Source: an uncultured Thermoplasmata archaeon
Lineage (GTDB): Archaea > Thermoplasmatota > Thermoplasmata > RBG-16-68-12
Reading direction: 5' to 3'
NCBI GenBank assembly: GCA_963768855.1
Contig: CAVYJM010000024.1
Coordinates: 1-24,730 of the forward strand
Length of the DNA: 24,730 bases
In this document: in pieces, positions 15,339 to 24,730 of the stretch
Layout: each line of letters begins with the position of its first letter
How positions within the stretch are numbered: position 1 is the stretch's first letter
Position numbers and translations under genes: made by a program
The notes under the pieces: generated by a model
Told to the model about the DNA's origin: nothing
The model's database searches: none
Seen by the model: only the letters and a program-made list of their open reading frames with translations

Positions 15339-15466
15339 GTGCCAGGGAGCCATTCCGTCGTCATCGATTAGACTTCGCCCCGTCCTGGACACCCGTCACG
15401 GGGCTCCGTTCGGCGGAGCCGCACTTGCTCCGAACGAACCGAGTGCTTACCCCCCGACAGTGGTCG

Positions 15467-15473
15467 TTAAGTA
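15467..15473 (+). promoter_or_regulatory. TATA box of the solute-binding protein gene
   Basis: TTAAGTA lies about 40 nt upstream of GTG 15512, with a GGAGG RBS at 15498-15502. Confidence 0.55.
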
Positions 15474-15511
15474 CGTGCTGGGCTACTGTCGCACACGGGA
15501 GGGTGTGGGGA

Positions 15512-18418
15512 GTGTCGACACCAGAGTCTGGGTCGGCCGGCGAGGGTTCTCAAGCTCCCAAGTTGGAGATTCCCGCCGCCGGCAAACCGAAGCGCCGTAA
15601 GATCTTGATTGTGAGCATCGTGGTGGCCGTCATCGTCATCGCGGCGATTTCGGTGTGGGCTATCATCTACCTGGGGACGGGGTCGCTCAGCGTCAGCTCG
15701 ACGAGCCCCTTCGTAGCCGCGAAGAGCGCAGCGAGCTTCCAGGCCGTCATCACAACGCCGGCCCTGGTGAGCGCGGGGGCTGTCGGTTGGCAATTCGGCG
15801 ACGCGACCAACACGAGCGGCGCCGCGACGAACGTGAGCCATACCTATGCGTACCCCGGGAACTTCTTCATCTTCGCGTCGTCTTCCCTGAGCAACGGCAA
15901 AGCGGTGGACAACTCCATGTCGCTCTTCCCGCTGCAGGTGGGCCCGGCTCCTGTCACGGATCCCAATCCCTTGGGTGAGGCATCGGCCCTGGGCACCTTG
16001 ACAGTAAACAAGACGGCCTCGTCAGCCGGCGCTCCTTTGATCGCGGTGGGGGGTTCCATCCTCTTCCACGCTTCCATCCATGTCGCGCCAGACTTCGCTT
16101 GGTCGGACGAAGTGAACGCCATCACGAACGAATGGAACAACTACTCGTGGACCGTCACGAAGCTGACGATCGACTTCGGGGATGGCTCGGCGCCCTCCAC
16201 GAACACATCCACGCCGTTCGACGACACGGCAGCGGGATACCCGTACGAAGTGAGCCACCAGTACAGCACCGCTGGCCTCTATGCGGTCACCCTGTCCGTC
16301 ACGACCCAGAACTACTCCTTCCACCAGGTTGACGGGGTTCCCGCCGAACCCACGGCCACCCCGGTCTCGCCCGCGCAGACCCTGGCCACGATTGTTGGCC
16401 AGTCCGTGGCGGTAGGCAACTACCAGCTCGTGAGCTACACGCAAAACATCGTCAACCCTGGCACGATCGTGAACATGGAGTCCACAACGGGAGGGACGTG
16501 GACCCTCGATCCTTCGATCAACTACGTGGGATCGGAGCCGATCATTAACATCTACCAGACTCTCCTGGCGTACAACTACACGTCGACGACCGAGTTCGTG
16601 CCGATCATCGCGGATTCGATCCCCACGGTCGCGAACGGCGGCATCAGTGCCGACTTCATGAACTACACCTTCCACATCCGACAGGGCATCAAGTTCTCCG
16701 ATGGGACGCCCGTCACTCCGTGGGATGTGAAGTACTCCTTCACGCGCACGATGCTGTTCGTCGCCGGGTCGCCGCCGACCCCGGGATGGCTCATCTCGCA
16801 GTTCCTCGTCCCGACGGACGTGGATGGCAACTGGCTCTTGAGCTACGCCAACGTGAACGGCGCCGTCTCCATCGACAACTCGAGCCAGACGGTCACCTTC
16901 CATCTCGTGCTCCCTGCTCCGCCCGTGGTGTTCTACGAGATCATCACCAGCACCCTCGGGTGCGGAATCGCGAGCCACACGTGGCTGGAGAACGTGGGAC
17001 CGAAGCTCGTGTGGTCCGACGCCGGCTTCACGAACTATACGAAATACGGCGAACTCCAGAACTGGGTGAGCGCCTGGCGCAATGGCGCGGTCGGATCGGG
17101 GCCGTACATGATCGACTACGTCGCGAACCCCGACGCCATCGTGCTGAAGGTGAACCCGAACTTCAAGCCGGTCCTCGGCGATCCCCAGCCCACGGTCGCC
17201 AAGATCGTGATCCAGTACGTCGCGGACGACTCCACGCGGGAGCTCTCCCTGCAGACGGGCAAGGCGGACATCGCTACGATTTCGTCAAGCCGATACGCGG
17301 TGGCGTCGAACATGGCCCGGCAGGGCTTGATCTACATCCTCCCCATCCCATCGATGACCTTGTACTGGTGGAACTTCAACATGGAGATCTACCAGAGCGG
17401 CACGCCCCAGAACCCGTACGGGAACAGCGTGCCGCCGAACTTCTTCGTCGATCTCAACATGCGCAAGGCGTTCTTCTACGCCTACAACTTCCAACAGTAC
17501 ATCAACCAGATCTTGGGCAACGGGGTGTACAACACGAAGTTCGGGGAGCTGTACAACGGGATCATCCCGAACGGCATGCCCGGCTACGTGAACTACTCCT
17601 CCATGGACACGTACAGCATGACCCTGGCCCACCAGTACTACAACCAGACCCAGTGGGTCAAGGACCGCGGCTGGGCCACGTCCGGGTTCACGCTCGCGCT
17701 CAACGTGGGTCAAGAGGACCCGATCGCCTCGGCCGCTGCGACGATGTGGGCCCAGAGCCTAGAGCAGCTCGCGCCGGCGGGCCAGATCCACATCACGACC
17801 AACCCGATCACGGATGCGGAGGTCACGGCGGACGCCGTGCCGCATGCGAATCCGATGGCCATCTACTCCGTGGGCTTCGGATGGGCCCCCGACTACCCCT
17901 GGCCCACGGACTACACGGTGCCCATGCTTCTGCCCGGAATAACGTACGACACCCCCTACGGCGGATACTACACCGCAACGAACGGGTTCAACATCGAGTA
18001 CTTCCAGGGCGACGCGAACGGGACGGGCCAAGTCGCGAACATGACGAAGATGCTGAACTGGATCGACGACAGCACGGGTGTGAATGCGACGGACCTCGAC
18101 CAGGCGCTGTGGGATTCCCAGCAGGCGAACCTGATGGGGATGAACGAGACGTTGTACGTGCCCGAGTTCCAGCTGTTCAACCATGTCTACTACCGCACCT
18201 GGATCAACGGGATGGAGAAGGAGGCGAACCCGCTGCTCGGCGGCCAGTGGCTGCTGTACGCCTACCTCTCCAAGCCGTCGGGCGTCGCGACGTCCTCCGT
18301 CCCCTCGGGCACGTCCATCCTTGGATACCTCATCGCGTCGGGGCTCGCTGGCCCGCCCCTGATCGCCCTCCAGGGCACCCGGCGGTCCCGGACGGATTTG
18401 AAATGGAAGGAGGACTAG
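15512..18418 (+). CDS. Family-5 (DppA/OppA-like) ABC solute-binding protein with an N-terminal TM, two PKD-like domains and a hydrophobic C-terminal tail (968 aa)
   Basis: N-terminal RRKILIVSIVVAVIVIAAISVWAIIYL. PKD signatures WQFGDAT...SHTYAYPGNF and IDFGDGS...SHQYSTAGLYAVTL. SBP5 motifs TLDP, IYQTLL, YTFHIRQGIKFSDGTPVTPWDVKYSF, VGSGPYMI and NMRKAFFYAYN. Confidence 0.9.
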   Translation: MSTPESGSAGEGSQAPKLEIPAAGKPKRRKILIVSIVVAVIVIAAISVWAIIYLGTGSLSVSSTSPFVAAKSAASFQAVITTPALVSAGAVGWQFGDATNTSGAATNVSHTYAYPGNFFIFASSSLSNGKAVDNSMSLFPLQVGPAPVTDPNPLGEASALGTLTVNKTASSAGAPLIAVGGSILFHASIHVAPDFAWSDEVNAITNEWNNYSWTVTKLTIDFGDGSAPSTNTSTPFDDTAAGYPYEVSHQYSTAGLYAVTLSVTTQNYSFHQVDGVPAEPTATPVSPAQTLATIVGQSVAVGNYQLVSYTQNIVNPGTIVNMESTTGGTWTLDPSINYVGSEPIINIYQTLLAYNYTSTTEFVPIIADSIPTVANGGISADFMNYTFHIRQGIKFSDGTPVTPWDVKYSFTRTMLFVAGSPPTPGWLISQFLVPTDVDGNWLLSYANVNGAVSIDNSSQTVTFHLVLPAPPVVFYEIITSTLGCGIASHTWLENVGPKLVWSDAGFTNYTKYGELQNWVSAWRNGAVGSGPYMIDYVANPDAIVLKVNPNFKPVLGDPQPTVAKIVIQYVADDSTRELSLQTGKADIATISSSRYAVASNMARQGLIYILPIPSMTLYWWNFNMEIYQSGTPQNPYGNSVPPNFFVDLNMRKAFFYAYNFQQYINQILGNGVYNTKFGELYNGIIPNGMPGYVNYSSMDTYSMTLAHQYYNQTQWVKDRGWATSGFTLALNVGQEDPIASAAATMWAQSLEQLAPAGQIHITTNPITDAEVTADAVPHANPMAIYSVGFGWAPDYPWPTDYTVPMLLPGITYDTPYGGYYTATNGFNIEYFQGDANGTGQVANMTKMLNWIDDSTGVNATDLDQALWDSQQANLMGMNETLYVPEFQLFNHVYYRTWINGMEKEANPLLGGQWLLYAYLSKPSGVATSSVPSGTSILGYLIASGLAGPPLIALQGTRRSRTDLKWKED

Positions 18419-18423
18419 GGACC

Positions 18424-18720
18424 TCACTCCTCAACGATTTGCCGCTTGGTGCGAGGGGGCCAGAGGCGACGGTAGAGGCGGTGCTCCAGGAACGCCAGGA
18501 AGCCGAAGACGACGACGAGAGGGGGAACCGCCCAGAGCGGCTGCGCGGGCAGGAGGTCCAGGACCTGAAGCGGGGTGAACACATCGAGCGCCACGCAACC
18601 GACGACGTAGAAGCCTCGGATTGCATCCCCGAAGACGTAGACCAGTTCGGGATGGCGGCCGGCGAATCCCTGATCGTCCTCGGGTTCGTCCGGCTCCTCG
18701 GTGATGACCACCCGCGTCAT
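18424..18720 (-). CDS. Small membrane protein (98 aa), antisense to the transporter operon
   Basis: ATG 18720 with GGAGG. TTTATG at 18783-18788 on the minus strand. Acidic N-terminus, 2-3 hydrophobic segments and a basic C-terminus. It fills the SBP-permease gap without overlap. Confidence 0.7.
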   Translation of the reverse strand: MTRVVITEEPDEPEDDQGFAGRHPELVYVFGDAIRGFYVVGCVALDVFTPLQVLDLLPAQPLWAVPPLVVVFGFLAFLEHRLYRRLWPPRTKRQIVEE

Positions 18721-18890: not shown

Positions 18891-19970
18891 GTGCGCCTGA
18901 GCCTCTACATCGCACGCAGGCTCGTCCTCCTGATCCCCACCCTCATCGGGGTCACGATCATCACGTTTGCCCTGAGCCACGCAGCCGGGCCGCTTTACTC
19001 GGCCGCGATGTACTGCAACCCCCACCTCCCCATTTCTTGCCCGGAACAGGTGAAGCCGATCATCGAGCATTACCATCTCAACGACCCCATCCCGGTGCAG
19101 TATGTCTACTACCTGAACGCCCTCGTCCGCGGGGACTGGGGCTTCACCTCTACGAGTCTCTTCCAGGGCACAGTCGTCGACGCGATCATCCTCTTCTTCC
19201 CGCCGACGATCGAGCTCGCCGTCGGAGCCACACTCCTCGCGACCCTGCTCGGGATCCCCACGGGCTCCATCTCGGCCGTGAAGAAGGACAAGGTCCCGGA
19301 CCACGTCACGCGCGTCGTGGCCCTCGCGGGCTACGCCGTGCCGTACTTTGTGCTCGCCATCTTTCTGCAAATCCTCGTTTCGGTTCTCTTGCCCACCTGG
19401 CCCATTTACGGAATCTACGACGCGAACGTGCTCAGTCCGAGCACAAGTCCCTGGGCGTTCTCAATCTTCGAGGGGGGATCGCAACTCTATCCGCAGCCCA
19501 CCCACATGCTCGTCATCGACGCCGCCATCCATGGCGACTGGCGGATCTTCTGGGATGCGCTGGCCCATCTCATCCTCCCGATTGTCACCTTGGCCTTTGG
19601 AGTCCTGGGGGTCATCCTCAGGATGATCCGGTCTGGCATGGTGGATTCCATGAACCAAGACTACGTGCGGACGGCCTGGGCGAAGGGGTTGCCCAAACGC
19701 GTCGTCATCGCGAGGCACGTCCGACGAAACGCGCTCCTTCCTGCGACGACCGTCATCGGTCTGCTGTTTGCGTACCTCCTCGGCGGCGTCGTGCTCGTCG
19801 AGGACGTCTTCGCGTGGAGCGGCCTGGGACGCTGGGCGACAGCGGCCATGCTTCGTTCCGACAGCGGGGGCGTCATGGGCTCCACTCTCATCTTCGCGCT
19901 CGCCCTCGTCTTCACAAACCTAGTGGTCGACATCATCTATGCGCGGCTGGACCCGCGCATTACACTGTGA
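18891..19970 (+). CDS. dppB: DppB/OppB-family ABC permease
   Basis: YIARRLVLLIPTL, LNDPIPVQYVYYL...GDWG, FPPTIELA, and EAA loop MNQDYVRTAWAKGL...RHVRRNALLP. Confidence 0.92.
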   Translation: MRLSLYIARRLVLLIPTLIGVTIITFALSHAAGPLYSAAMYCNPHLPISCPEQVKPIIEHYHLNDPIPVQYVYYLNALVRGDWGFTSTSLFQGTVVDAIILFFPPTIELAVGATLLATLLGIPTGSISAVKKDKVPDHVTRVVALAGYAVPYFVLAIFLQILVSVLLPTWPIYGIYDANVLSPSTSPWAFSIFEGGSQLYPQPTHMLVIDAAIHGDWRIFWDALAHLILPIVTLAFGVLGVILRMIRSGMVDSMNQDYVRTAWAKGLPKRVVIARHVRRNALLPATTVIGLLFAYLLGGVVLVEDVFAWSGLGRWATAAMLRSDSGGVMGSTLIFALALVFTNLVVDIIYARLDPRITL

Positions 19971-19978
19971 GGGTGGGA

Positions 19979-20920
19979 ATGGCGGCCGTGGATCTGGGCA
20001 GCTTGCGGGAGGCGCGACGGGAGACGGGTTCCCTCCGTCGCAGAGTCAGCGAGTACGCCCTCACGTTCCGCCTGTTCCTCCGGAGCCCGCTGGCAGCCAC
20101 CGGACTTGTGATCCTCCTGGTGTACGTCGCCGACGTAGTGTACGTTCAGTTCTTCATGGCCAACCCGGACCTGTTGTCGACGAACCTCAACGCGACCATC
20201 CCGTTGGCCCCTTTCTGGTGGCCCGGCGGCACCTCTGCAGGTGGCTGGATGGGCACGAGCTATCCGGGAATCGACCTGACATCCGGGATCCTGAAAGCCA
20301 TCCGGACGGACCTGATCTACTCGACTCTCGTCGTGATTGTCGGAGCCCTGATCGGGAGCCTGATCGGCCTCTATGCGGGGTATCGAGGGGGCCTGTTTGA
20401 CGAGGCCCTCATGCGTGCGACCGACGTCACCTACTCCATCCCCTTCCTCATCTTCGCCATGGCGGTGGGTTTTGCTTTTTACCAGCGGACCTTCCTAACC
20501 GTCAACATCGTCCTCCTGATCCTCTGGTGGCCGCCCTACGCGCGCCTCGTGCGAGCGCAGACCCTTTCCGTGAAGGAAATGAAATTCGTGGAGGCGGCCA
20601 AGATCGCCGGGGCATCGGACGCGCGCATCATGATGCGGCACGTCCTCCCGAACACCCTGGCGCCCGTCTTTGTCCAGGTCTCACTCGATCTGGGCGTCGT
20701 CGCGCAGGTTTTCGCGGCTTTGAATTTCATCGGATTCAATTCCGGGAATCCCTTGCTTCCTGAGCTGGGCAATCTCATCCAGAAGGGGTGGAGCGGTGGC
20801 TTTCTCAGCTATCCGTGGACCGTTGTCCTCCCCAGTCTTGCGCTCTTGATCTTCACCATTGCCGTCAACCTCGTGGGTGACGGCCTCCGCGATGTGATGG
20901 ACCCGCGGCTCCGAAGGTAA
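19979..20920 (+). CDS. dppC: DppC/OppC-family ABC permease
   Basis: This is the 3' 313 codons of track ORF 19037..20920. ATG 19979 has a GAGGGTG RBS. Motifs WMGTSYPGIDL, YARLVRAQTLSVKEMKFVEAAKIAGAS...RHVLPN and NLVGDGLRDVMDPR. Confidence 0.92.
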   Translation: MAAVDLGSLREARRETGSLRRRVSEYALTFRLFLRSPLAATGLVILLVYVADVVYVQFFMANPDLLSTNLNATIPLAPFWWPGGTSAGGWMGTSYPGIDLTSGILKAIRTDLIYSTLVVIVGALIGSLIGLYAGYRGGLFDEALMRATDVTYSIPFLIFAMAVGFAFYQRTFLTVNIVLLILWWPPYARLVRAQTLSVKEMKFVEAAKIAGASDARIMMRHVLPNTLAPVFVQVSLDLGVVAQVFAALNFIGFNSGNPLLPELGNLIQKGWSGGFLSYPWTVVLPSLALLIFTIAVNLVGDGLRDVMDPRLRR

Positions 20921-20924
20921 TCTC

Positions 20925-22688
20925 ATGAAACCGCTCCTCGCCGTCCGCGGACTGAAGACCGAGTTCGCGACCACGCACGGCACCGTCCGCGCGGTCGACG
21001 GCGTGGACCTGGAAATCGGGGAAGGCGAGGTGGTCGGACTCGTGGGGGAAAGCGGATGCGGGAAGTCCGTCACGGCGCTGTCCGTCATGTACCTCATCCC
21101 CCAGCCGCCGGGCCGGATCGCGGACGGCGAGATCTGGTTCAAGGACTTGGACCTCCTCGCGGGGGGGACCGACGAGGTCGTGGTCAAGAAGAGGCGTAAG
21201 GGTCGCCTGAAGCTCGTTCGTCGCGATGCCCTCATCGACCGACACCAGGCCCGGATGAGCAAGATCCGAGGCCGGGAAATCTCCATGATCTTCCAGGAAC
21301 CCATGTCGTCCTTGAACCCCGTCCTCCCTGTGGGCTATCAGGTTGCGGAGGTTCTCCTCTACCAGCGGCGGAGGCAGATCTGCGACGGCATCCTTTCACG
21401 CAAGGAGCTGGGGCCTGAGAATCTCAAGCGGTTCGAACAAATGGTGGCCACGGTGGATCCCACGGACCGCGAGCACCGCCTGGCGGAGTTCTGCGTGGAG
21501 AGCGGCTTGTCCGCGGACAAGGTCTCCGCGATCGCCAACGATTCGAAGCGCTCGATGAAGGAGAAACTCGAGGCGATCCGAACGCTCGGGGAACGCCGGC
21601 GCGTGGGGAGCCGGTGGTTCATCAACCTGATGAAGCGGCTCGACATCCTCGAGACGGAGCGCGCGACTCGCGAATGGCAAGCGCTCTCCCACACGACCCT
21701 CGCGAAGAACGCGATGCAGGCGTTCGACCCGTCCCGCAACCCGAAGGCCTCGGGCCTACCACCCCTCGCCAAAGTGTCCTTGCAGGCGGACGCCGTCCGC
21801 TTGGCGTTCCGGGTGCCGCCCACGGAGGAGCACCGGTCGCTCGTGGACGAAATCGTGAGGGACGTGGCCCAGGAGCCGGAGGGGGCGGCCTTCCGACTCG
21901 TGCGGAAGGTGTCCCTCGCCGCAGAGGGCATCGACCTGACCTTCGCCGAGGGAGAGGCCACGAGCTTCATGCATGAAACGGAGTACCGATCCCGGAGCCT
22001 CCTGTACCGTCTCCTCATGTTCATTCCCCTCCTGCGAGCCCGACTCATGAAGCCCTTGGAAGAGGAGGCCCGGCGGCAGGTTCTGGACCTGCTCAAGCTC
22101 GTGCGCATCCCGGAGCCCAGCAAGATGTACCGCGAGTACCCCCACGAACTGAGTGGCGGGATGCAGCAACGGGTGATGATCGCCATGGCCCTGGCTTGCG
22201 ACCCCGCCCTCATGATCGCGGACGAGCCGACGACGTCCCTGGACGTGACGACCCAGGTGCAGATCCTGAAGCTCATCCGAGACCTCCGCGCGAGGGTCAA
22301 CTCCGCCATCCTGTACATCACTCACGACCTCGCCGTGATCGCGGAACTGTGCGATCGCGTGGCCGTGATGTATGCGGGCAAGATCGTCGAGGACGCGCCG
22401 GTGAACGAGCTGTTCGCGCACCCTCTTCACCCGTACACCCAGGGTCTCCTCGAATCCATCGTCTCCATGGACTCGTTGAAGGTCGAGGTGGGCGCCCACC
22501 TCCCGACGATCCCGGGGACCGTGCCCGACCTGATCGACCCGCCGAAGGGCTGCCGCTTCCATCCCCGCTGCAAGTACGCGTTCGAACGATGCAAAATCGA
22601 GGATCCCCAGCTCCTCGGCCGGGGCAGCGTCCACAAGGTGGCGTGTCATCTCTACGATGAAGGAGGGTCTCGTGGTCCTGATGCGTGA
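20925..22688 (+). CDS. dppD: DppD/OppD-family ABC ATPase with a ~230-aa insertion (587 aa)
   Basis: GESGCGKS, MIFQEPMSSLNP, YPHELSGGMQQR, MIADEPTTSLDVT, YITHDL and C-terminal GCRFHPRC...C...ACHLY. Confidence 0.92.
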   Translation: MKPLLAVRGLKTEFATTHGTVRAVDGVDLEIGEGEVVGLVGESGCGKSVTALSVMYLIPQPPGRIADGEIWFKDLDLLAGGTDEVVVKKRRKGRLKLVRRDALIDRHQARMSKIRGREISMIFQEPMSSLNPVLPVGYQVAEVLLYQRRRQICDGILSRKELGPENLKRFEQMVATVDPTDREHRLAEFCVESGLSADKVSAIANDSKRSMKEKLEAIRTLGERRRVGSRWFINLMKRLDILETERATREWQALSHTTLAKNAMQAFDPSRNPKASGLPPLAKVSLQADAVRLAFRVPPTEEHRSLVDEIVRDVAQEPEGAAFRLVRKVSLAAEGIDLTFAEGEATSFMHETEYRSRSLLYRLLMFIPLLRARLMKPLEEEARRQVLDLLKLVRIPEPSKMYREYPHELSGGMQQRVMIAMALACDPALMIADEPTTSLDVTTQVQILKLIRDLRARVNSAILYITHDLAVIAELCDRVAVMYAGKIVEDAPVNELFAHPLHPYTQGLLESIVSMDSLKVEVGAHLPTIPGTVPDLIDPPKGCRFHPRCKYAFERCKIEDPQLLGRGSVHKVACHLYDEGGSRGPDA

Positions 22689-24567
22689 GGTCCAGGGAGA
22701 GGTGCTGATCGCTGCCGAAGGGCTGCGAAAACACTTCCCCGTCCGGGGAGGCTTCCTCCAGCGGGAGACGGCTCGCGTCCGGGCGGTGGATGGCGTCAAC
22801 CTGGCGATCCACCAAGGCGAGACCTTGGCCCTCGTCGGGGAGAGCGGTTGCGGCAAGACGACGCTTGGCCGGCTCCTCCTCCGGGTGATCGAGCCCACCG
22901 AGGGGGATGTGTTCTATGACGTTCCGGGGGACGAGTACCTCCGGTACAGAGACGGTCGAAGACGATCCAGGGAAACGGGGTCCGGCCCGCAGTCCGAGGA
23001 CTTCGAACAAAAGTATGCCATTACGAGGAGGGACCGCCTCACGGAGGCCGGGCATCTTCGACGGTCGCTTCTGCTCGCGCTGGCCGCGGCGACACTCGCC
23101 TCCCTCGTTGTCCCTTCCCTTCTCATGGTCGTCGCGGGATTGCCCTTCGACAATCTCTGGGCGGTCATCGGTTTCGGGATCCTCGTAGGAGTCCTCGCGG
23201 GGATCGTAGGTTCATTCCTCCTGACCGCGAGCATGGCGCGCTTTCCCGCCATCCTCGCAGGGATTGCTCTCGTGATGGTGAATGTGGACACGGTCCTCGC
23301 GCAGTGGATCGGTTCCGGTCTCGTTGGAGGAGGCCCGTTCGATGCGGGGACCGCCTATGTAGCCGCGTGGGAGGCGGGGAGCGTCGGAATGATCCTCGCC
23401 ATCCTCCTGGCTCCCATCGCTGCGGACGCGTGCGCCCGGGTCTTCCTCAGGTACGTGCGACGCGCGGCGCGATCCACCCATCACCGGCTCCGGACCATCC
23501 GCCGAGACATGCAGTCCGTCTTCCAAGATCCGTTCACCTCCCTGGACCCGCGGATGCTCGTGAAGGACATCGTCATGGAACCCATCCTGGTCAACCGGCT
23601 CATGGCACGAGCGGAGGCCGAAGAACGGGCGGCGGCCCTCCTTCAGGAAGTCGGGCTCCGGCCGGATTACCTGTATCGCTTTCCCCACGAATTCTCGGGA
23701 GGGCAGAGACAGCGAATCGCGGTGGCCCGGGCCTTGGCGCCCAGCCCCAAGTTCCTCCTCCTGGACGAGCCCACGTCGGCCCTGGACGTGTCCGTCCAGG
23801 CTCAGATCCTCAACCTGCTGAAGGACATCCAGCAGCAACAGGGGTTGACGTATCTGCTGATCACCCACAACCTCAGCGTCGTCAAGCAGATGGCGGACCG
23901 CGTCGCCGTCATGTACCTGGGGAAGATCGCCGAGCAGGCGGCGACGGCCGAGCTCTTCGAATCGCCCCTCCATCCCTATACGAGAGCCTTGCTCTCGGCG
24001 GTGCCCGTTCCCGACCCGAGACGGACGGCGGGACCGGATCATCCTCCCGGGAGATGTCCCGAGCCCCATGGACCCGCCGTCGGGATGCCGCTTCCACACC
24101 CGATGCCCCGCGGTGCTCCCCGTGTGCGGCTGGGGTCCGAAGGACATGGCTCCCCTGGCGAGGCATCTCTTCGACGCCTCGAGCAACCCGAAGGCCGTGG
24201 GGCTGCCGCCGCTGGAGGAGGTGTCCATCAAAGGACAGAGGCTCCGCCTCCTCTTCGGGAAGGCGCAGCCGACGGACGGCGAGCGGAAGCTGGTGGAGGC
24301 CCTCGTGAACGAGCAGCAGGGAGACGGCCCCTACAAGATCATGTTCCAAGCGGTGCGCCGAGTGTCCCTCCACGATTCCTCGATCGACCTGGAGTTCCTT
24401 CCCCGCGCGAACCGGAGATGATCGAGGTGACCCCACGACACGAATGCGCCTGTTTCCTGTTCCCGACGGGCGTGAAGGGCGAGTCCGTCTGGGGGCCTGA
24501 AGGTCCACCTGGAGACGTGGAGGTGGGCGGCACCCCGCTTCCGTCGGTGGACGTGGCGGGAGGATAG
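22672..24567 (+). CDS. dppF: DppF/OppF-family ABC ATPase with an inserted 4-TM domain and an inserted C-terminal domain; two compensating frameshifts (about 24025 and 24405)
   Basis: [49 protein letters not shown] and [14 protein letters not shown]. The C-terminal motif continues in the +1 frame ([24 protein letters not shown]) and returns to the original frame for [16 protein letters not shown] 22672 follows GGAGG; ATG 22681 is an alternative start. Confidence 0.9.
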
Positions 24568-24571
24568 GGGC

Positions 24572-24730
24572 TCAGACGATCCGACGATGGTGGCGGAGAA
24601 TCTCGACCACCTCGGGGACCGGGAGCTCCGGCGACGTGTTCCCATCCCGGCCGACGACGGTCTCCGCGGTGAACAGGGAGTCCACGATGGCCTCTTCGGT
24701 CGCTTCGACGGCGGCCAGGAAGAGCGAATC
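24572..24730 (-). CDS. C-terminal end of a P1/S58 (DmpA-like) aminopeptidase; the gene runs off the window
   Basis: The minus-strand frame reads DSLFLAAVEATEEAIVDSLFTAETVVGRDGNTSPELPVPEVVEILRHHRRIV*. This matches the DmpA-family C-terminal pattern LF.AA.EATEEAI.NAL..AET..GRDG. Confidence 0.75.
   Translation of the reverse strand, partial: DSLFLAAVEATEEAIVDSLFTAETVVGRDGNTSPELPVPEVVEILRHHRRIV

Follow-up and report, generated by a model that had tools for sequence, protein, structure and literature searches.

The ATPase subunits of ATP-binding cassette (ABC) importers are peripheral proteins, and to our knowledge fusions of a transmembrane domain to an ABC ATPase run end to end. Chains of the MacB/FtsX type (type VII) are built in this way, combining an ABC ATPase with four membrane helices that form their own permease. 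Large elements can also be nested within an ABC fold whose halves reunite around them, as in the coiled coils of SMC and Rad50, the insertion domains of UvrA and the regulatory insertion of CFTR nucleotide-binding domain 1 (NBD1); these insertions are soluble and lie at other positions of the fold, and we know of none among them that spans the membrane. Here we describe an OppF/DppF-type ABC ATPase gene (positions 22657..24567, + strand) in a window of 24,730 nt, the whole stretch of DNA analysed, from an uncultured Thermoplasmata archaeon (contig CAVYJM010000024.1 of assembly GCA_963768855.1, forward strand). The E. coli transporters OppBCDF (8z21_D) and DppBCDF (8z1v_D; PMC12136057) share with it the fold, the catalytic motifs, an oligo_HPY region with four cysteines and the operon layout. 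E. coli OppF and DppF are soluble, peripheral and about 330 residues long, whereas the protein described here carries about 190 residues with four hydrophobic helices ahead of its Q-loop. We consider it probable (roughly 75%) that this is an intact OppF/DppF-type ATPase with a nested 152-residue, four-helix membrane module that serves as a permanent tether beside the DppB and DppC permeases.

Solved OppD and OppF chains align with the protein only over residues 20-85 and 278-456. The best sequence match among them, M. tuberculosis OppD (Rv1281c, 8j5q_D; E = 4e-106), is a fusion of two ATPase domains that lacks membrane helices, and its loop between the aligned blocks measures 14 residues as against 192 here. 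This bears out the initial annotation, which had counted about 190 residues ahead of the Q-loop where about 20 are normal. The site lies between the strand that follows Walker A and the strand of the Q-loop; 219-220 residues separate the end of Walker A from the Q-loop, compared with 41-47 in canonical Opp ATPase paralogs of the same genome. The insert (22921..23487, residues 89-277) is translated in one frame throughout. Its first part is a charged helical linker extension ending in KYAIT (residues 88-124; 22918..23028, + strand), which aligns with module-free relatives (P0264 of locus L020, and L032). Because this linker and the return segment also occur in such relatives, we confine the nested module to residues 125-276 (152 residues; 23029..23484, + strand), which comprise four helices, an outer-loop helix and a basic stalk.

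All four hydrophobic segments that had been noticed beforehand are present (residues 138-162, 167-190, 196-219 and 242-264), with Kyte-Doolittle 19-residue means peaking at 2.0-2.4 in the window protein. Hydropathy, loop charges and AlphaFold helices together predict the first transmembrane helix (TM1, residues 138-162; 23068..23142), which has basic residues just before it, a Gly-rich TM2 (residues 167-190; 23155..23226) and TM4 (residues 243-265; 23383..23451), all on the + strand. TM3 (residues 196-219; 23242..23313, +), in which N209 and D211 are invariant within subfamily 1, is predicted from hydropathy and the AlphaFold helix. Between TM3 and TM4, charges and the model point to an acidic outside loop with a short helix and the motif PFD...AWE (residues 220-242; 23314..23382, +), and TM4 is modelled as continuing through an Arg-rich stalk (residues 266-284; 23452..23508, +) into the Q-loop strand, in keeping with the charges.

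Three paralogous OppF subfamilies, all represented in this genome, carry a homologous module at the identical site: subfamily 1 on contigs C21, C23 and C24, subfamily 2 on C11 and subfamily 3 on C6. In an alignment of 19 sequences from the three subfamilies, mean counts of Lys+Arg and of Asp+Glu were 4.95 and 1.89 in the 20 residues before TM1, 0 and 1.37 in loop 1-2, 2.05 and 0.05 in loop 2-3, 0.42 and 2.21 in loop 3-4, and 7.42 and 1.05 after TM4, both putative outside loops being acidic. In every subfamily these charges fit the positive-inside pattern of a putative four-pass bundle with both ends inside (N-in/C-in). The initial annotation had argued from the even helix count that both ATPase halves would return to the cytoplasm, and hydropathy, loop charges and AlphaFold agree in predicting such a topology.

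AlphaFold2 was run on a 21-row alignment led by the intact copy of the gene on C21 of the same genome (C21 numbering equals that of the window protein minus 8). The full-length model (predicted local distance difference test, pLDDT, 79.7; predicted template-modelling score, pTM, 0.69) contains helices at C21 residues 125-151, 159-180, 188-215, 222-232 and 234-276, the last an unbroken helix of 43 residues that leads into the Q-loop strand. Most of the bundle has a pLDDT of 82-93 by block, the exceptions being two blocks with 71 and 76. Up to residue 597 the model can be superposed on E. coli OppF (8z21_D; Z 35.4, root-mean-square deviation 2.7 Å, 308/328 residues aligned, 44% identity), and both ATPase halves are therefore modelled as rejoining into a normal OppF fold.

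Searched on its own, the module resembled only generic helical bundles among 48,161 PDB chains, with designed proteins as the best matches (Z 7.5), and a search of the ESM Atlas gave TM-scores of at most 0.58. The prominence of soluble designs among these matches would suit a cytosolic or membrane-surface bundle whose helices do not cross the membrane, for example a lipid-binding or oligomerisation domain. We regard this as quite improbable: in all subfamilies the four segments of 22-25 residues are almost uncharged (Kyte-Doolittle means 1.7-2.2), the loop charges alternate strictly according to the positive-inside rule, and the helices are rich in Gly and Ala, as is typical of helix packing in membranes. 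Chains of MlaE, YrbE and FtsX were among the weak fold matches (Z 5.9-6.7). Unlike the MacB/FtsX arrangement, the bundle described here is nested in the ATPase and supplements two complete permeases, and the fold matches are too weak to indicate kinship.

The insert had no significant match in Pfam (DUF3487 at E = 0.037) and no match in NCBIfam, and a feature search of a protein atlas gave no usable match. Comparison of the TM1-2 hairpin with the TM3-4 hairpin (hhalign) gave a probability of 4% for an internal duplication, with only the PFD...W motif and one helix aligned. In our search of solved structures no example of the nested layout was found, the closest being ordinary soluble OppF, DppF and OppD, and full-text searching of the literature turned up no account of an ABC ATPase domain with membrane helices set within it.

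Membrane insertion, topology and role of the module are what we infer from these data, and its docking beside DppB/DppC, like its insertion, is a prediction. The nascent chain would leave a half-built ATPase domain in the cytoplasm, cross the membrane four times with both ends inside, and return through a basic stalk helix continuous with TM4, whereupon the ATPase fold would be completed. The ATPase would then be an integral membrane protein held permanently near DppB/DppC. The initial annotation had proposed an integral membrane ATPase that contributes helices beyond the DppB/DppC channel, and the four-helix bundle predicted by hydropathy, charges and AlphaFold supports that proposal. Provided that it is membrane-embedded, the module would supplement the 6+6 helices of DppB and DppC with four more from the ATPase. 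Both permeases are of normal length (359 and 313 residues), and the module therefore adds helices and replaces none. E. coli DppF pairs with DppC (PMC12136057), and a tether of this kind would place the ATPase next to DppC. Since the module occurs on the F subunit only, there would be one extra bundle per transporter, which would make the transporter asymmetric. A complex prediction with DppB, DppC and the module alone scored 0.00 without controls and counts neither for nor against binding.

The most likely role of the module would be to tether the ATPase permanently and to assist assembly, with the TM4-stalk helix as a mechanical link to the Q-loop. The same helix raises an alternative in which the module lies in the membrane as a sensor or coupling device rather than a passive tether, with TM4 and the stalk passing a signal to the ATP site. 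The signal might come from the membrane anchor of the binding protein as it docks, from a lipid or ion, or from the state of the membrane; alternatively, the module might add to the translocation path. Several features would suit such a function: in the model a single helix of 43 residues comprises TM4 and the stalk and stops at the Q-loop strand, N209 and D211 inside the helices are invariant and the outside-loop motif PFD...AWE is conserved in subfamily 1, the binding proteins end in a hydrophobic anchor and a basic tail, and purifying selection acts on the whole module, beyond hydrophobicity. However, subfamilies 2 and 3 do not share the polar helix residues, near-invariance across the subfamilies is limited to about ten positions of the module, and no partner was identified. 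We judge a sensor unlikely, though not negligibly so, and favour the tether.

If the tethered architecture is correct, a membrane domain threaded through the catalytic fold would break the rule that such ATPases are peripheral, or are fused to membrane domains end to end. It would raise the question of how the ATPase halves meet after four membrane passes, and would provide a natural system for testing how a link between the membrane and the Q-loop affects coupling.

The insert could in principle be spurious (through misassembly or a chimeric contig) or in decay (as an intein-like or mobile insertion, or within a pseudogene), and three features of the data lend themselves to that reading: two frameshifts in this gene on the window contig, 77 gap columns relative to the C21 copy within 4.36 kb, and an estimated contamination of 7.7% for this metagenome-assembled genome (MAG). 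To this we give almost no credence, as the artefact reading is already contradicted by independent data. Logan contigs from four runs (X1, X3, X7 and X9), belonging to four studies of wetland and freshwater sediment metagenomes, were placed on positions 22600-24600. Contigs from all four independent studies bridge both borders of the insert, disposing of the misassembly that the initial annotation had named as a way to be wrong. One contig (X7 record 18) spans 22888-23549 without a gap, and others cover 22867-23093, 23141-23768, 23209-23781 and 23079-23630; the sole indel within the insert among these contigs is an in-frame CCG. No contig joint that skips the insert with ends at its borders occurred in the four runs. 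Short joints from about 22863 to about 23900 were rejected: their sides measure 20-29 letters, and they look like ABC genes from other organisms, joined where motifs are conserved.

A word-indexed search with the insert recovered 14 other proteins of 523-688 residues (most about 630) from JGI, ENA, NCBI and Logan assemblies, which are 61-98% identical over the insert and all align in register. The copy on C21 of the same genome is intact, and the module is in frame across three subfamilies with a ratio of non-synonymous to synonymous substitution rates (dN/dS) of about 0.33. No Pfam or NCBIfam family, intein families included, matches the insert, and this, with the selection on the module at the protein level, leads us to reject an intein or mobile element.

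Two observations nevertheless weigh against the interpretation of an intact, tethered ATPase. The window's own allele is frameshifted downstream of the module, and may be a pseudogene (in this allele only) or lie on a badly polished contig; and the genes that carry the module do not form one clade on a tree of the ATPase core, which leaves the history of the module unclear. Concerning the first, the initial annotation had described the frame as continuous, which holds through the insert and fails downstream, where two compensating frameshifts occur. One extra base is present near 24026 (24020..24030, + strand), which contigs from X3, X7 and X9 lack (X1 gave no cover) and through which the homologues read. 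One base is missing near 24400-24402 (24398..24404, + strand): contigs in all four runs carry the additional base, and in X1, X7 and X9 some contigs are also without it. The homologues have neither change. Between the two, positions 24027-24400 read in the +1 frame.

The locus is present in the MAG as three redundant, near-identical copies on separate contigs (C21, C23 and C24), of which the C23 copy has a different frameshift. Window positions 20410-24730 are 96% identical to C21 (L019 7393-11710) over the 4.36 kb compared. Redundant copies of this kind fit the contamination estimate and suggest strain variants or unpolished contigs, and the frameshifts in the window copy are likely polishing errors or strain variants in redundant contigs.

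Selection was examined by comparing the window with two homologues, about 62-66% identical to it at the amino-acid level in the insert. The module gave dN/dS values of 0.33-0.35, the linker 0.17-0.21 and the ATPase core after the Q-loop 0.04. The module is constrained coding sequence under purifying selection, though the constraint on the enzyme core is tighter.

A profile of the insert region (module and linker) searched against 1.84 billion representative proteins matched only 7 clusters, in which the full-length members are all OppF-like ATPases with the module at the same site and the short ones represent fragments; a stand-alone relative of the module did not appear in that set. On the two questions that the initial annotation had raised about homologues, the insert occurs in this search only inside OppF-like ATPases or as fragments, and it is carried by orthologues as well as by two further paralog families. 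With a three-subfamily profile, the module was detected in 30/37 other genomes of the genus (one to four matches each) and in 0/6 genomes of the sister genus; samples of 300 genomes from the class and 400 from the phylum yielded no true match. Two borderline matches outside the genus were rejected, one (G512) being an FtsX/MacB-like permease and the other (G560) containing three stop codons. Within the genomes searched, the conserved four-helix module is a feature of one genus of uncultured wetland Thermoplasmata. One RNA run contained a 0.05-0.10 share of the sampled words, which is not evidence on expression.

Homology of the module between subfamilies is detectable from the module alone (E = 3.5e-8). 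In all cases examined the module is confined to the F subunit, and the partner DppD proteins of subfamilies 2 and 3 are ordinary, at about 330 residues. In another genome of the genus (G226:C9; L027 9400-16051), two Opp-type ATPase pairs lie about 4 kb apart on one strand; in each an ordinary DppD precedes a DppF that bears the module, the two DppF proteins belonging to subfamilies 2 and 3. A spacing of about 4.2 kb between two module matches recurs in two more genomes of the genus, and a third has about 2.7 kb.

Relatives that lack the module show what the site looks like without it. In the related L020 operon, whose DppC is 64% identical, the DppF (P0264) lacks a hydrophobic helix and has 69 residues separating Walker A from the Q-loop; it aligns with residues 13-124 (51% identity) and 277-356 (74%) of the window protein, with four residues in place of 125-276. 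A paralog in the archaeon's own genome (C8:59500, L032), 64% identical in the core, has the same short, module-free form. These relatives share with the module carriers the linker with P-x-DE and KY[AG][IV] and the return segment RLR...R..Q.VFQDP, and in them Walker A and the Q-loop are 67-69 residues apart. Relatives with and without the module stand side by side in one genome and are ready controls for biochemistry and cryo-electron microscopy.

The second point weighing against our interpretation comes from a maximum-likelihood tree of the ATPase core, calculated with insert columns removed from 31 rows (own-genome paralogs and relatives). Subfamilies 2 and 3 join two module-free paralogs (support 100/100), away from subfamily 1, and every bootstrap tree requires two or more changes in the presence of the module. 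A single clade of carriers was rejected (approximately unbiased, AU, test, p = 0.0002), by a test chosen after the tree had been seen. Either the module is older than the paralogs and has been lost repeatedly, or it has been passed between paralogs within the lineage. A bolder proposal follows the second route, with an accessory membrane domain that moved between paralogous OppF genes and wired the Q-loop to a bundle, so that ATP turnover became coupled to sensing or binding at the membrane, which would amount to an ABC importer architecture not yet described; this we offer tentatively, as possible but doubtful.

The remainder of the protein is conventional. It reads as 636 residues in its open reading frame (ORF), starting at the ATG at 22657 or at the Met at 22681 as in homologues. 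Walker A (GESGCGKT, residues 61-68; 22837..22860, + strand) is evident in the sequence and nearly invariant in alignment A3, in which the Q, D and P of the Q-loop (MQSVFQDP, residues 285-292; 23509..23532, +) are invariant. The same sequence and alignment locate the stretch from the signature FSGGQ (residues 346-350) to Walker B LLLDE (ending at residue 371; 23692..23769, +), and the H-loop His404 (23866-23868, +). Walker A, Q-loop, signature, Walker B and H-loop are all conserved in alignment A3, and we therefore predict that the protein is most likely a working motor.

Pfam ABC_tran matches at 101 bits, the match being broken into two stretches, and oligo_HPY (PF08352) matches the C-terminal part at 36 bits against a cut-off of 27.1. 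By its sequence, the protein is the ATPase of a peptide/nickel-family (PepT, TC 3.A.1.5) ABC importer. The best NCBIfam matches are DppF and OppF models, all below their cut-offs: NF043071 and NF011659 gave 332 bits against 660 and 330 against 540, and the subfamily model NF008453 gave 366 against 408. Given these scores we use the name DppF nominally, for a PepT-family ATPase without an assigned substrate.

The gene closes a complete cluster in the order binding protein, DppB, DppC, DppD and DppF, which recurs on a 98-kb JGI contig (L005). Like other PepT-family operons it comprises an SBP_bac_5 protein, two BPD_transp_1 permeases and a second ATPase. The substrate-binding protein (15425..18418, + strand; about 970-997 residues, the start codon being uncertain) has PKD repeats before its SBP_bac_5 domain, a hydrophobic anchor at the N-terminus and another at the C-terminus, the latter with a basic tail behind it. 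The permeases DppB (18891..19970, +) and DppC (19979..20920, +; start as chosen here) both match Pfam BPD_transp_1. The partner ATPase DppD (20925..22688, +; 587 residues) carries soluble inserts and no hydrophobic helices, with insertions of 73 residues before the Q-loop and 287 from the Q-loop to the signature. Two other Opp paralogs of the genome (C17:35587-36078, L051; C6:1107688-1108098, L053) have 165 and 117 residues, respectively, before the Q-loop and no hydrophobic helices there. Soluble insertions are thus numerous among the Opp ATPases of this genome, and in this lineage insertions have a hot spot in the loop that follows Walker A.

A further difference from E. coli OppF and DppF is a second insert, which parts the third cysteine of the C-terminal four-Cys motif from the fourth by about 108 residues, including a domain of about 85 residues that is also found inside DppD. 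In E. coli DppF the four cysteines bind a [4Fe-4S] cluster (PMC12136057). The first three cysteines here (C-x5-C-x6-C; 24086..24127, + strand) lie in the +1 frame in this copy, and the fourth is in the sequence HECAC (24439-24453, +). All four are present at this spacing in intact copies, and the motif of the window copy is broken by the frameshifts. The domain of about 85 residues (24140..24400, +, +1 frame) is 43% identical to DppD residues 259-340 (21699-21944; E = 2e-14) and matches no Pfam family; the DppD copy sits in a helical region, and the model gives the DppF copy a small alpha/beta fold.

An ORF of 98 residues (18424-18720) lies on the minus strand, in the interval that separates dppB from the gene of the binding protein, with an acidic N-terminal end and two hydrophobic segments. 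A called gene in the corresponding place of L005 matches it at 73% identity in a gap-free alignment, and an ORF occupies that place in L007; the subfamily 2 locus has no counterpart, and a Pfam search of the ORF gave no family. The window also encodes TFIIB and ribosomal protein L35Ae.

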